DNA from: Prevotella sp.
GTDB taxonomy: Bacteria > Bacteroidota > Bacteroidia > Bacteroidales > Bacteroidaceae
Assembly: GCA_013333285.2 (NCBI GenBank)
Contig: JABCPF020000042.1
Coordinates: 12,302 to 76,301 of the forward strand
Direction of reading: 5' to 3'
DNA: 64,000 bases
The stretch's first letter is position 1; each line of letters opens with the position of its first letter. The position numbers and the translations under genes were made by a program. The notes below the pieces were generated by a model. That model did not search any database, was not told where the DNA came from, and saw nothing but the letters and a program-made list of their open reading frames with translations. Shown here in pieces: positions 5,013 through 18,577 of the stretch.

Positions 5013-6635
<1,623 letters not shown>

Positions 6636-6666
6636 AAACAACAAGGTGTGTCATACTTTTAATAAA

Positions 6667-6682
6667 TGGCACACCTTTTGCA
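6667..6682 (+). promoter_or_regulatory. Sigma-54-type -24/-12 element upstream of grpE, inside a hairpin
   Basis: TGGCAC-ACCTT-TTGCA matches TGGCAC-N5-TTGCW; it overlaps the right arm of the inverted repeat AAGGTGTGTCAT/ATGGCACACCTT. Confidence 0.55.
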
Positions 6683-6713
6683 TTATATGCTCGTAAACAA
6701 TGAATTACCTACT

Positions 6714-12561: not shown

Positions 12562-12620
12562 CATTACTCAGATAATGAGAACGTTTGAGACTAAAAACAA
12601 AAACTATCTTTTCAATCAAC

Positions 12621-14645
12621 ATGAACAATATTAATGTAATGAACCGTGCGGCTAACAATATTAGAATATTGGCTGCAAGTATGGTAGAGAAAGCAAAGTC
12701 GGGCCACCCAGGAGGAGCTATGGGAGGAGCCGACTTTATTAATGTCCTATTCTCAGAATACTTGGTTTATGACCCCAAAGACCCAACATGGACAGGTAGG
12801 GACAGATTTTTCCTTGACCCAGGACATATGAGTCCGATGCTCTATAGCGTACTTGCGCTGTCAGGCAAGTACAGTATTGAAGATATAAAAACCTTTCGTC
12901 AATGGGGTTCTGAATGCCCTGGGCATCCCGAACTCGATGTTATTCGTGGCGTAGAAAACTCTTCTGGTCCTCTCGGACAAGGCCATGCCATGGCAGCAGG
13001 TGCTGCAATTGCAGAGAAATTCTTAGAAGCACGTCTTGGCAACACGATGATGCAGCATACCGTCTACGCTTATATCTCTGACGGCTCTGTTGAAGAAGGT
13101 ATCTCGCAGGAAGTAGGAAGATTAGCAGGAACATTGGGGTTAAATAACCTCGTTATGTTCTACGATTCCAACGAAATACAACTTTCGACAGAGACAAAAG
13201 TTGTTATGGTTGAAGACACTGCAGCAAAATACAGAGCTTGGAATTGGAATGTCATCGAGATAAATGGAAACGATGTTCAAGAAATTCGTCAAGCATTGAA
13301 TGCTGCTCTCGAAGAAAACGACCGCCCTACCCTTATTATTGGCAAGACCGTTATGGGCAAAGGCGCGCTCAAAGCTGATGGCAGTAGCTACGAACATAGC
13401 ATAAAAACACATGGTGCACCACTTGGTGACGGTGCTTTTACTAATACAATAAAGAATCTTGATGGCGACCCTGAGAATCCGTTTACTATCTTTGACGACG
13501 TTAAAGAACTGTACGAAAATCGCAGAAATGACCTTGTTACGATTGTAGCAAAACGTCGTGCAGAAGAAAAACAATGGGCAGAAAGCAATCCTGATAAAAA
13601 GCTATTGATGGATACTTGGTTTGCTGGTCAAGCTCCAAAAATTGACTGGACGAAAGTAGAACAGAAGAAAAACGATGCTACACGCTCTGCATCTGCTGCC
13701 TGCCTTGCTGAATTAGCCAAACAAGTTCCAAACATGATTTGTGCGTCAGCAGACTTATGTAACTCTGACAAAACAGATGGATTCCTCAAGCAAACCACCG
13801 AATTCAAGAAGGGAGACTTTAGCGGAGCGTTCTTCCAAGCAGGTGTATCAGAGTTGGCTATGTGCGATATTTGTATCGGAATGATGTTGCATGGCGGAAC
13901 CATTGCTGCAATGGGCACCTTCTTTGTCTTCTCAGATTATATGAAACCTGCTATCCGTATGGCTGCACTAATGCGTACTCCTATCAAGATCATATGGACG
14001 CATGATGCTTTCCGCGTGGGCGAAGACGGCGCTACTCATCAGCCTATTGAGCATGAGGCACAAATCCGCCTCATGGAGAAGCTACAAAATCATGAAGGAC
14101 AAGATAGCGTGCGCGTTTTCCGCCCTGCTGATTCTGACGAAACAACAGAATGCTGGAAACTTGCAATGGAAAATACAGAAACACCTACCGCACTTATCCT
14201 TTCGCGCCAGAATATTGACAGTCTTCCCGCAGACAACCAATACGAAATGGCTAATAAGGGCGCTTATATTGTTGCAGGTTCTGATGAGAATCCCGATGTC
14301 ATTTTGGTGGCAAGCGGTTCTGAAGTGTCAACACTTGAGGAAGGAGCCTTATTATTACGAAAAGACAATATCAAAGTGCGCGTTGTAAGTGCACCTTCTG
14401 AAGGGTTGTTCCGTCGCCAATCAATTGAATATCAAAATGCTGTTCTTCCTTACAATGTAAAGAAATTCGGACTTACTGCTGGCCTGCCATGTACCCTCGA
14501 AGGCCTTGTAGGTATTGGCCCACTTAGCAGTATTTACGGTATGCAAAGTTTTGGATTCTCAGCACCTTACAAAGTACTGAATGAAAAACTGGGCTACACA
14601 GCCGAAAATGTTTATTCACAAGTGAAAGAACTTCTAAAGCGTTAA
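12621..14645 (+). CDS. tkt: Transketolase
   Basis: SGHPGGAMG, RDRFFLDPGH, SGPLGQG, THDAFRVGEDGATHQPIEH; start placed at ATG 12621. Confidence 0.96.
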   Translation: MNNINVMNRAANNIRILAASMVEKAKSGHPGGAMGGADFINVLFSEYLVYDPKDPTWTGRDRFFLDPGHMSPMLYSVLALSGKYSIEDIKTFRQWGSECPGHPELDVIRGVENSSGPLGQGHAMAAGAAIAEKFLEARLGNTMMQHTVYAYISDGSVEEGISQEVGRLAGTLGLNNLVMFYDSNEIQLSTETKVVMVEDTAAKYRAWNWNVIEINGNDVQEIRQALNAALEENDRPTLIIGKTVMGKGALKADGSSYEHSIKTHGAPLGDGAFTNTIKNLDGDPENPFTIFDDVKELYENRRNDLVTIVAKRRAEEKQWAESNPDKKLLMDTWFAGQAPKIDWTKVEQKKNDATRSASAACLAELAKQVPNMICASADLCNSDKTDGFLKQTTEFKKGDFSGAFFQAGVSELAMCDICIGMMLHGGTIAAMGTFFVFSDYMKPAIRMAALMRTPIKIIWTHDAFRVGEDGATHQPIEHEAQIRLMEKLQNHEGQDSVRVFRPADSDETTECWKLAMENTETPTALILSRQNIDSLPADNQYEMANKGAYIVAGSDENPDVILVASGSEVSTLEEGALLLRKDNIKVRVVSAPSEGLFRRQSIEYQNAVLPYNVKKFGLTAGLPCTLEGLVGIGPLSSIYGMQSFGFSAPYKVLNEKLGYTAENVYSQVKELLKR

Positions 14646-14655
14646 CTTAAAAATT

Positions 14656-15099
14656 ATGGATATTAAAGTTGTAGGCCTTGCCAGCGACCATGCAGGCTTT
14701 GCTCTGAAAACGTTTGTCAAGCAATATCTTACTGAAAGGAATATTCCTTTTAAAGACTATGGCACAAACAGCGAAGAAAGTTGCAATTATCCCGATTATG
14801 CCCACGCCTTGGCACAAGGAATTGAGAAAGGTGAGGTTTATCCGGGTATTGGAATCTGCGGTTCTGGTGAAGGAATTGCTATAACTTTAAATAAACATCA
14901 GAGCATACGAGCTGGATTAGCATGGGCTCCTGAAATAGCCCATCTTATTCGCCAGCACAACAATGCAAACGTGCTCGTAATGCCTGGGCGTTTTATCAAT
15001 CAAGAGACGGCTAAGAAAATATTAGACGAATTTTTCGAAACAGATTTTGAAGGAGGACGCCATCAAAACAGGATTGATAAAATACCTGTAAAGGAATAA
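14656..15099 (+). CDS. rpiB: Ribose-5-phosphate isomerase B
   Basis: SDHAG, GICGSGEG, RQHNNANVL, FEGGRH. Confidence 0.95.
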   Translation: MDIKVVGLASDHAGFALKTFVKQYLTERNIPFKDYGTNSEESCNYPDYAHALAQGIEKGEVYPGIGICGSGEGIAITLNKHQSIRAGLAWAPEIAHLIRQHNNANVLVMPGRFINQETAKKILDEFFETDFEGGRHQNRIDKIPVKE

Positions 15100-15262
15100 A
15101 AAGCAATTGGCTTAACATATCGTGCTATTTAATAGCATATTACTTGCTATCACAACCTCCTTATAACAAGCGGTTTATGCTGATGGCTTTGTATTGGCGA
15201 CACAAAGTTTGCCACTTTACAGAGCAATTACACGCATACGTTTTTTATTATTAAAAACACAC

Positions 15263-15298
15263 AAGTAAAGGGTAGCCATAGTGGGCTACCCTTTACTT
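15263..15298. terminator. Strong hairpin, probable bidirectional terminator
   Basis: Perfect 15-bp arms AAGTAAAGGGTAGCC/GGCTACCCTTTACTT between convergent rpiB and the lipoprotein gene. Confidence 0.75.
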
Positions 15299-15482
15299 AT
15301 TATCATGGTACTAAGACTATCAAATCTTAGAATATCATCATTACAAATTTGCAAACTCGTTCACAAACAAAGCCCTGCTCCATACATTTATAAAGATAAC
15401 AATACTGACTATAGCCAACACTTGTTTATGCTACGCAAGTATTTAACGTGAATTCGACGAATTCACGTTAAAATGGATGATT

Positions 15483-15995
15483 TCATTGTTTATATTTATC
15501 AATATTCTTTGTCCACGGCAATGCTTTCCCATTAGAAAAAGATTGCCAAATATTATTTACATCAAATGTTTTAAGATTAGATAATCGACAATCTGATGCA
15601 AATAAAAGAAAGTCTTTTTGTGTCTTAAAGCCATAAATCCTATTCTCATTAGCATTAATAATAAACCATGCTTCTTTGACTGGCTGTCCGGAAACTATCG
15701 GTTCTCCTTTACAATATAATAATATATACGGAGGATATACGCCCACTCTCTTAACATCGCTCGGTCCCTGTATATTTTGAATAGTTGTCGGAGGAATTTT
15801 TGTATCTACAATCCACTGGACATTATCGGTGCACGTTACTTCGAAAGGTTTAATTAGAGGTATCCTCATGTAATCCCAACCTGAAGTCCTTGTATAAAAA
15901 TCCTCTTTGCTATCTTTTCTGTTATTTGTATTTGTACAACAACAAAAGAGTACAAAGGAGAGATACATTATTAATTTCATTTTTTTATTTGCCAT
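15483..15995 (-). CDS. Hypothetical lipoprotein (cargo of the IS982-derived element)
   Basis: 170-aa ORF; basic N-terminus, hydrophobic stretch and Cys (LSFVLFCCC); AT-rich; no family recognised. Confidence 0.75.
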   Translation of the reverse strand: MANKKMKLIMYLSFVLFCCCTNTNNRKDSKEDFYTRTSGWDYMRIPLIKPFEVTCTDNVQWIVDTKIPPTTIQNIQGPSDVKRVGVYPPYILLYCKGEPIVSGQPVKEAWFIINANENRIYGFKTQKDFLLFASDCRLSNLKTFDVNNIWQSFSNGKALPWTKNIDKYKQ

Positions 15996-16008
15996 TTTGC
16001 TTCTATTG

Positions 16009-16089
16009 TTATTTTGTCATTGCATCAAAAAACTTGCAGAAGTCATCTGCCATACAAAATATTTCAGTAACTTTGTTTTCAATGATCAT
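16009..16089 (-). pseudogene. IS982-family transposase N-terminal stub (26 aa)
   Basis: Reads MIIENKVTEIFCMADDFCKFFDAMTK-stop, matching the recalled Bacteroidales IS982 transposase N-terminus (KVTEIFCMADDFCKFFD); lies about 100 nt inside the terminal repeat; too short for the ORF track. Confidence 0.8.
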
Positions 16090-16127
16090 GGCGATCTTTG
16101 TTTGTAATTATTTGAATGTTAACACCT

Positions 16128-16159
16128 TAAAGTTACAACAAATTTCGCTAATCACCAAA
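16128..16159 (-). promoter_or_regulatory. Element-internal promoter facing the transposase stub and cargo gene
   Basis: Minus strand TTTG (16159-16156), 20-nt spacer, TAACTTTA (16135-16128); one mismatch to TAnnTTTG. Confidence 0.55.
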
Positions 16160-16328
16160 TTTATAGACTCTTATAATTCATCGAACTCACGTTATTTATA
16201 TCATAGCAAATTCACATATAGTTTTGATTGCTAAATTTATAGACCCAAAAAGAAAATCAACTCCGAATTACACATCAAAAACTATCTAAATTTTGATAGT
16301 AAAAACCCCTTATGACAACCTGTTTTTG

Positions 16329-16428
16329 CCATTACATCATAATCGGGTTACGATTACGTCGAAAACAGCGAACGTTTACGACGTAAACGCGTTGCGTTTA
16401 CATCGTAATCGGATTGCGATTACATAGC
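16329..16428. repeat. Tandem array of 22-bp degenerate palindromic units
   Basis: Units start at 16329, 16351, 16373, 16395, 16417; consensus CGWTTACRWCGTAAWCG plus 5 nt; unit 3 contains the perfect palindrome CGTTTACG-A-CGTAAACG. Confidence 0.8.
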
Positions 16429-16954: not shown

Positions 16955-18577
16955 ATGAACACACCCAAAGACATTCTCAACAATCCCTTTATTAACAAAG
17001 GAACAGCCTTTAGTTTGGCCGAACGCGAACAACTAAACATTGTCGGCTTGTTACCCCCTATTGTACAAACGCTTGAGGAGCAAATTGAAAGAACTTATTT
17101 GCAATATCAGAAAAAAGTAAACGATTTGGAGAAACGCGTTTATTTAATGACCCTTTTCAACACCAATCGCACACTATTTTATGCTTTGATGGCTCTGCAT
17201 GTAGAAGAGTTTATGCCGATAGTTTATGACCCTACTGTTGCCGATGCTATTCGCCAATATGACGAGTTGTTTATGAAGCCACAAGATGCAGCTTTCCTAT
17301 CTATTGACCATTCAGAGGACATGGAGAAAGCACTGCTTAATGCTTCAAAAGGTAAAAACGTAAAACTAATTGTGGTAACCGATGCCGAAGCCATTTTAGG
17401 TATTGGCGACTGGGGTGTAAACGGCGTAGCAATAGCTATTGGTAAGTTAATGGTTTATACTGCTGCCGCAGGTGTTAATCCGAATGAAGTATTACCACTT
17501 GTGCTCGATGTTGGAACGGATAACAAACAATTGCTTGATAATCCGCTATACTTAGGCAATAGACATGCACGTGTACGTGGAGAGAAATATTACAATTTCA
17601 TTGATAAATTTGTAAATACTGCTGAAAAGCTTTTCCCAAATCTTTATCTCCATTGGGAAGACTTTGGACGTCCTAATGCCGCTGCAATTCTCGAGCGATA
17701 TCAAGATAAAATTACTACTTTCAACGATGACATTCAAGGAACTGGCATTGTTGCACTTGCAGGTATTTTGGGAGCGTTAAACATTTCGAAGGAAAAGTAT
17801 ATCGAACAGCGCGTAATGATATTTGGAGCAGGCACTGCAGGTGCAGGGATTGCACACCAAATATATGAAGAATTCATACAACAAGGTCTGACGTCTGACG
17901 AGGCAAAACAACATATTTATTTAGTAGACAAACAAGGATTGCTTACTGATAACATGCCCGATTTAACTGAAGGACAGCAGTTTTTCGCCCGTCGGTCATG
18001 CGAATTAAACCAACCTCTTCCAACCTTACAAGATGCGGTTACTGCCCTACACCCCACTGTGCTGATAGGAACCTCAACACGTGCAGGAGCTTTCACAGAA
18101 GAAATTGTTAGAGAAATGGCTGCCCACACCAAACGTCCTATTATTTTCCCACTTTCGAATCCTACAGAATTAGCTGAAGCAACTGCAGCCGACTTAATAG
18201 AATGGACTGAAGGCCGTGCCCTCATTGCTACAGGAATACCAAGTAAACCCGTTAACTACAAAGGTGTAATCTATACCATTGGACAAGCTAATAATGCCTT
18301 GATGTACCCAGGACTTGGACTTGGTATAATGGCCTCTACTGCACGTTTTGTCAATCAAGCCTTACTTTCGGCTGCAGCACACGCCTTAGGAGGTATTGTA
18401 GATACAACACAACCTGGAGCTGCCGTGCTACCACCCGTAAGTAAAATTACATCATTCTCGCAGCACTTAGCAGAAGTAGTAGCACAGCATGCTATTGATC
18501 ATCAAAATACGAAAGAGCCTATTACTGATGCTAAAGAAGCTGTTGAGCGCATAAAATGGTATCCAAAATATCAATAA
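16955..18577 (+). CDS. mleS: Malolactic enzyme (NAD-dependent malic enzyme family)
   Basis: 540 aa; [69 protein letters not shown] end; closely follows lactic-acid-bacterial MleS as recalled. Confidence 0.8.

Follow-up and report, generated by a model that had tools for sequence, protein, structure and literature searches.

The window, a 64,000-nucleotide stretch of Prevotella sp. contig JABCPF020000042.1, carries a single-gene cassette between rpiB (14656–15099, plus strand; PF02502) and a malic enzyme gene (16955–18577, plus strand; PF00390 and PF03949), both of which lie outside it. The cassette is a 747-bp unit (15446–16192) bounded on both sides by TATTTA (15440–15445 and 16193–16198), the two copies of a target-site duplication. 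Its 18-bp ends agree at 16 of 18 positions. Read inward from the right on the minus strand, it consists of an IS982 left inverted repeat that forms the right terminus (16175–16192), a Bacteroidetes-type −33/−7 promoter motif (16159–16128), a 26-codon stub ORF (16089–16009), a 13-nt gap and a 170-aa lipoprotein ORF (15995–15483), hereafter the passenger. The left terminus is the first 18 bp, an inward-facing IS982 end, of a 23-bp palindromic IS982 scar (15446–15468). A first-pass annotation had already described the repeats, both TATTTA copies, the motif, the stub and the lipoprotein gene, and all of them lie where it placed them. The 18-mer end pattern has three matches in the window against 0.22 expected, a number that 0 of 100 shuffles reached.

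A metagenome scan anchored in the 3' end of rpiB returned four loci; two are this locus (L027 and L029) and two are unrelated (L028 and L030). L029 is an empty allele. Its alignment with the window covers 12566–15445 (95.7%) and picks up again at 16193 (97.4%); TATTTA is there once, and what L029 lacks is exactly 15446–16192 plus one TATTTA. This is the orthologous site with a single TATTTA that the first-pass annotation had suggested looking for, and it bears out the proposal that the unit inserted as a whole. We consider it virtually certain that insertion occurred via IS982-type ends. L027, from a second strain, has the same left junction as the window and is identical over its 133 cassette bases, ending inside the gene. 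Its intergenic flank matches the window at only 298 of 349 columns, with 5 differing columns in the last 100 and 30 in the preceding 100, which suggests either that the filled allele spread by short-tract recombination or that a second insertion took place at the same target. The 401 genomes sampled from the genus do not include the host's own species, and the best rpiB identity among them is 74%. Outside the cassette, a 37-nt direct repeat (73% identity; 15144–15180 and 16293–16329) flanks the insertion site. To the right, positions 16326–16423 hold short 22-nt-spaced repeats with hairpins and form the most variable stretch relative to the empty allele (22 differences per 100 columns).

The first 177 nt of the element, counted from the right terminus, are 93.8% identical to an intact 1,026-bp IS982 (L017). 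The 301-aa protein of L017 scores 252 bits on NF033520 (IS982), for which the cut-off is 130. Stub codons 1–25 are 88% identical to the L017 transposase (tblastn, E = 2e-9), which confirms the earlier recognition of the stub as an IS982 transposase N-terminus; not noted then was that the last two stub codons and the stop are passenger-derived DNA. The cassette was also correctly described as transposase-less: codons 1–25 are the sole piece of IS982 transposase in the window, and the element has no complete DDE transposase of ~290–300 aa. By its sequence, it is an IS982 derivative and not an autonomous member of the family. Both ends start AC(N)6T; relative to the end consensus used (5'-AC, AC(N)6T(N)5TT), the TT comes two bases later, as it does in intact Prevotella copies. 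TA precedes 38 of 41 distinct IS982 end junctions, a count that includes inner palindrome arms. Several intact or internally deleted IS982 copies have 6–8-bp TA...TA duplications, and others have unmatched flanks.

The left end has a different history. The third match to the end pattern (15451–15468, minus strand), missed in the first-pass annotation, makes the left end one arm of the 23-bp palindrome, which together with its flanks has 15-bp perfect arms. As RNA, the palindrome would form a hairpin of −16.2 kcal/mol (z = −3.9); it was not called as an intrinsic terminator. Nine genome loci hold a relative of the passenger, and four of them (L001–L004) hold the gene itself at 99–100% identity, in two uncultured Prevotella, Segatella salivae and Prevotella pallens. 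The five full-length genes (the window and these four genomes) lie at unrelated loci and have 0–3 differences per 513 nt. The exact passenger protein is present on 630 contigs.

The palindrome follows the stop codon in all five other carriers, namely L001–L004 and L031, the last at the end of a G167 contig. In L001–L003 the palindrome is identical, the donor sequence runs on past it and there is no IS982 sequence upstream; the left end of the cassette is therefore the passenger's older scar. In L004 and L031 the sequence switches to TAATTA no more than 3 bases from the palindrome. The native target in L004 (P. pallens) can be seen in a duplicated 147-bp copy. For L031 no empty site was found, the best relative being 76% identical, and the G167 contig starts inside the gene. 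L004 is an independent and longer IS982 capture, in which the IS has the opposite orientation and 1.2 kb of array DNA is included. An exact 147-bp duplication (L004:4577–4723 and 6550–6696) flanks the L004 capture, and its truncated transposase joins via a short shared sequence.

Similar 23-bp scars stand alone in two genomes (G026 and G061). They read as an 18-bp end followed by the last 5 bp of the other end, which is consistent with collapse of an IS982 via homology between its ends. Four such scars in these genomes (L038, L039, L041 and L042) stand just behind genes and have TA-rich flanks with no exact duplications. A 46-bp version stands behind a mobC-like gene (L035:615–660), again with TA-rich flanks and no exact duplications. 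A passenger variant (P0016), whose frame reads through into the palindrome, is a further case of gene–scar linkage.

The junction between the two parts can be placed at a 7-bp microhomology, AATGACA (16015–16021, minus strand). The same heptamer occurs in an intact IS982 (L011), within transposase codons 23–25, and in L003, where it lies 26 nt ahead of the start of the passenger. The DNA from 15996 to 16021 (minus strand) is passenger-derived, includes the stop that closes the stub, and matches L001 and L002 up to 16021. Given a scar already resident behind the gene and a separate IS982 left end, the cassette is best read as a capture between the two that was trimmed by deletion. We hold this two-origin capture, with one IS982 left end and one resident scar, to be very probable.

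The right end may also have given the passenger a promoter. The motif TTTG-N20-TAACTTTA (16159–16128, minus strand) lies at the same position in intact IS982 copies and is presumably the transposase promoter. It is one mismatch off the −33/−7 consensus reported for B. fragilis (PMC9330008). A relaxed form of the motif occurs 15 times in 128 kb, so the promoter argument is carried by position and conservation rather than by the match alone. The window motif lies 132 nt upstream of the passenger start. L001 and L002, which share one event, have an IS256-family end 29 nt ahead of the start and a perfect −33/−7 motif 137 nt upstream. Within 700 nt, the motif is missing from L003 and L004, where the gene stands behind array neighbours. 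Supply of motifs by two IS types is consistent with selection for expression of a gene that has left its operon, and the putative IS promoter probably drives passenger expression.

The stub–lipoprotein junction was seen only in the window and was absent from the viral scan, the plasmid collection and the sampled genomes. The viral collection had no relative of the gene, no palindrome and no junction. Among plasmids, 14 records match the IS part only, and a search for passenger homologues found none. IS982 left-end stubs at L024, L026 and L043 have no second end in the stretch read and were not counted as cassettes. L043 is an 8.9-kb Bacteroides plasmid in which 170 bp of IS982 left end, promoter motif and stub included (2201–2370), overlap the 3' end of a DJ-1/PfpI gene; matches H5–H14 are similar.

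IS982 ends around other cargo, for which the first-pass annotation had proposed a search, were found twice in P. pallens. At L010 (862–3610), two 389-bp IS982 deletion derivatives bracket a gene for a 554-aa lipoprotein with a Thiol_cytolysin domain (PF01289), and the outer flanks carry a TATTTA duplication; the unit looks like a MITE-bounded composite. At L012 (933–4999), two derivatives of ~488 bp enclose two genes, read from sequence as transporter-like and as an AraC-like regulator, with a TAATTA duplication in the outer flanks. Cargo movement by IS982 is thus not unique to the passenger gene. A further locus (L085; G270:C2:287600–307400) has at least six IS982 deletion derivatives scattered among numerous small genes with signal peptides, and no matching duplication pairs among the derivatives.

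The passenger has a signal peptide with a hydrophobic leader and a near-invariant cysteine (Cys20). Its family has 223 representatives at E ≤ 0.001, mostly 23–40% identical. No Pfam or NCBIfam family matches the passenger, DUF3997 being found in 2 of 101 members below the cut-off, and no PDB sequence match was found. The predicted structure has a pLDDT of 91.8. It gave no Foldseek match at E ≤ 0.001 and a best Z of 4.2, which implies neither a new fold nor a difference from known immunity folds. In L003 the passenger closes an array of RHS toxin and lipoprotein genes that lies next to mobC, DUF3408 and excisionase-like genes. The RHS toxin upstream of it matches our toxin profile weakly (E = 0.08–0.36) and is followed immediately by another lipoprotein, which leaves the passenger an orphan in L003 as well. 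No relationship to the passenger was detectable (hhalign, 11.7%) for the 155-aa lipoprotein that lies upstream in L003 and L004, and the toxin domains of L003 and L005 gave no significant match to each other in BLAST.

Profile searches found passenger homologues in 2 of 301, 15 of 351 and 9 of 251 sampled genomes. We examined 31 loci, of which 29 hold distant homologues, ~25–34% identical to the passenger. At 6 of these 29 loci, in five genomes, the homologue stands directly behind one family of toxin domain; neighbours at the other 23 are unrelated or absent. Four of the six loci have whole toxin domains (L005, L052, L056 and L069; BLASTP E = 1e-11 to 1e-61), at least three of them on RHS-core proteins, and two have 62-aa toxin fragments upstream of the homologue (L057 and L063). 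L069 also has a second copy of the domain (1995–2936) downstream of the toxin–lipoprotein pair, as in polymorphic toxin arrays.

The toxin domain has no Pfam match. Its structure was compared through a model built from 11 sequences (pLDDT 77.6). The best 12 Foldseek matches were colicin M-family chains only (probability 0.85–0.99, E = 2e-3 to 8e-3), and the matches include BtpeA, pectocins, PaeM, colicin M and syringacin M. All five chains with Z ≥ 5 are of the colicin M family; the best Z, 7.7 (rmsd 4.8, 147 aligned), is in the range that the tool calls common. The matches agree with one another but are modest in strength. The Atlas lead for the domain is a cluster in which 47% of members are Colicin_M. 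The alignment shows a conserved D-x-[LF]-D motif, which may correspond to the colicin M catalytic motif DxxD...R. Colicin M cleaves lipid II in the periplasm, and a periplasmic target would fit a lipoprotein antidote. The first-pass annotation had suggested a possible vehicle for single surface or immunity genes, and the six linked loci point to a probable immunity family. The passenger itself is a candidate immunity lipoprotein, an assignment that we regard as reasonably likely; the window encodes no colicin M-like toxin domain.

Together, these observations suggest a history in five steps. The gene would have started out in an array of RHS toxin and immunity genes next to ICE mobilisation genes, with the 23-bp collapsed IS982 scar already just after its stop. 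An IS982 would then have landed upstream with its transposase reading toward the gene, which put the gene between the left end of the IS and the scar. The junction seen in the window could reflect a deletion through the 7-bp microhomology in which the remainder of the IS was lost together with the DNA in between, so that the end, the promoter motif and 25 codons came to be fused 13 nt ahead of the start of the lipoprotein. The segment was inserted at TATTTA behind rpiB, duplicating TATTTA; the transposase was presumably that of IS982, acting in trans or from a copy not yet deleted, and the deletion and the insertion may have come in either order. Finally, the IS promoter would transcribe the stub and the lipoprotein, and the lipoprotein, placed in the envelope, would neutralise the colicin M-like RHS toxin of competitors. 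A transposase-less, MIC-like IS982 cassette carrying one orphan immunity lipoprotein, formed according to this scheme, is the account that we favour as likely.

Other histories would leave some of the same marks. TA-rich flanks are the target preference of IS982, and short matches in them are not rare, so a resident gene beside two unrelated IS scars, or chance repeats, might imitate a cassette; the empty allele, which lacks exactly the unit and one TATTTA, refutes this, and we give it almost no credence. The first-pass annotation proposed instead that the lipoprotein took the place of the transposase within a single IS982, between the element's two original ends. The 16/18 inverted repeats and the clean duplication are what such an exchange would produce. 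It is contradicted by the identical palindrome in L001–L003, where no IS982 lies upstream, and by the absence of IS982 right-end or transposase 3' sequence inside the left end; we find it very improbable. A further possibility is that the insertion behind rpiB was a longer composite (a whole IS982, array DNA and the scar) and was cut down at that site, leaving the 747-bp form as a remnant that has not itself moved. This differs from the favoured scheme only in the order of deletion and insertion. That the junction is known from one site, that L004 is a longer and differently oriented capture with 1.2 kb of array DNA and that internally deleted IS982 copies are common all speak for it. On the other side, both cassette ends are still intact, and deleted derivatives of IS982 are multi-copy and carry duplications of their own (L088 and L089), from which it follows that short IS982 forms do move. 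We put trimming in place at a little under an even chance, and mobility of the 747-bp form as such at an even one.

A separate doubt concerns function. The lipoprotein may not be an immunity protein in these hosts, or may protect against nothing present, and may simply hitch-hike because its scar eases pick-up by IS982. The 23 of 29 homologue loci without such a toxin directly upstream are in keeping with this, as are the lack of a known family or fold for the passenger and the number of substitutions, which is too small for a test of selection. Hitch-hiking sits poorly with the repeated linkage to one toxin family (including the fragment-plus-lipoprotein arrangement of L057 and L063), with a gene that is intact in all five full-length carriers, and with two unrelated IS types that have placed a promoter motif 132–137 nt upstream. 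We therefore regard it as rather unlikely and retain the candidate immunity role.

Among described elements, the cassette most resembles the MICs, which include MIC231 of Bacillus cereus (IS231/IS4 family) and 'mic' elements with qnrD or qnrS2 (PMC6199540, PMC3913671). As in these, there are two IS inverted repeats, no transposase, one passenger and a target duplication; the size also agrees (747 bp within ~0.7–3 kb), as does the stretch of IS kept beside the left repeat (PMC6199540, PMC3913671). In structure, then, the cassette can be classed as a MIC. Unlike MIC231, whose ends are from IS231, it has IS982 ends; these are of separate origin (one is the passenger's own 23-bp scar), and upstream of the passenger the cassette retains 25 transposase codons and their promoter motif. 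Mobilisation in trans has been shown for MIC231 and may extend to the cassette.

The cassette shares with the IS982 family (IS195, IS1187 and relatives) the 5'-AC ends, a 6-bp duplication within the 2–10 bp range and the transposase N-terminus (PMC7335449). IS1187 supplies −7/−33 promoters to cfiA (PMC7335449); the cassette differs in that the promoter it would lend points inward, not outward, and in having no complete transposase. The main text of the IS982 review describes no passenger-carrying derivative and uses the word 'passenger' 0 times (PMC7335449). Composite transposons, TMo and transporter IS likewise mobilise adjacent host DNA by IS ends (PMC3281130, PMC9330008), but the cassette has a minimal IS scar as its second end, where those elements use a second IS or a surrogate sequence, and little is left of its driver IS. 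AID-1 and rAID systems also move orphan immunity genes across species, down to ~30% identity with the cognate (PMC12247911). The cassette differs in being one gene in oral Prevotellaceae, with DDE IS ends, no tyrosine recombinase and no array. Classification as a rAID system was rejected, since a single gene stands here without a tyrosine recombinase and a co-oriented immunity array (PMC12247911).

With the colicin M-type systems (ColM, PaeM, pectocin M and BtpeA–BtpiA of B. fragilis), the likeness lies in the linked toxin domain, whose model gives modest matches to their fold. The passenger matches no solved chain and would be a separate immunity family. A literature search in a collection with few subscription journals returned no report of an IS982 cargo cassette or of this passenger.

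MICs, promoters lent by IS and orphan immunity are general ideas already known. The locus adds a natural case, clearly delimited and with its empty site, in which the IS982 family has built a one-gene cassette. The IS982 transposition pathway is described as still unknown (PMC7335449); a 23-bp scar that can act as a working end offers a direct substrate on which the minimal IS982 end can be defined. Two further families emerge that can be tested as a pair: an undescribed one of lipoproteins (223 representatives) and a linked one of colicin M-like RHS toxins. More tentatively, and with greater doubt, a 23-bp scar behind a gene may be a permanent transposition handle: an IS982 end arriving upstream would make a cassette and could supply a promoter. 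In oral Prevotellaceae this might form an IS route apart from AID/rAID, by which an undescribed family of immunity to colicin M-like RHS toxins has spread repeatedly between species, with the 747-bp form open to mobilisation in trans. If protection by the passenger proves true, an IS-based route would join the recombinase- and ICE-based spread of orphan immunity in Bacteroidales.
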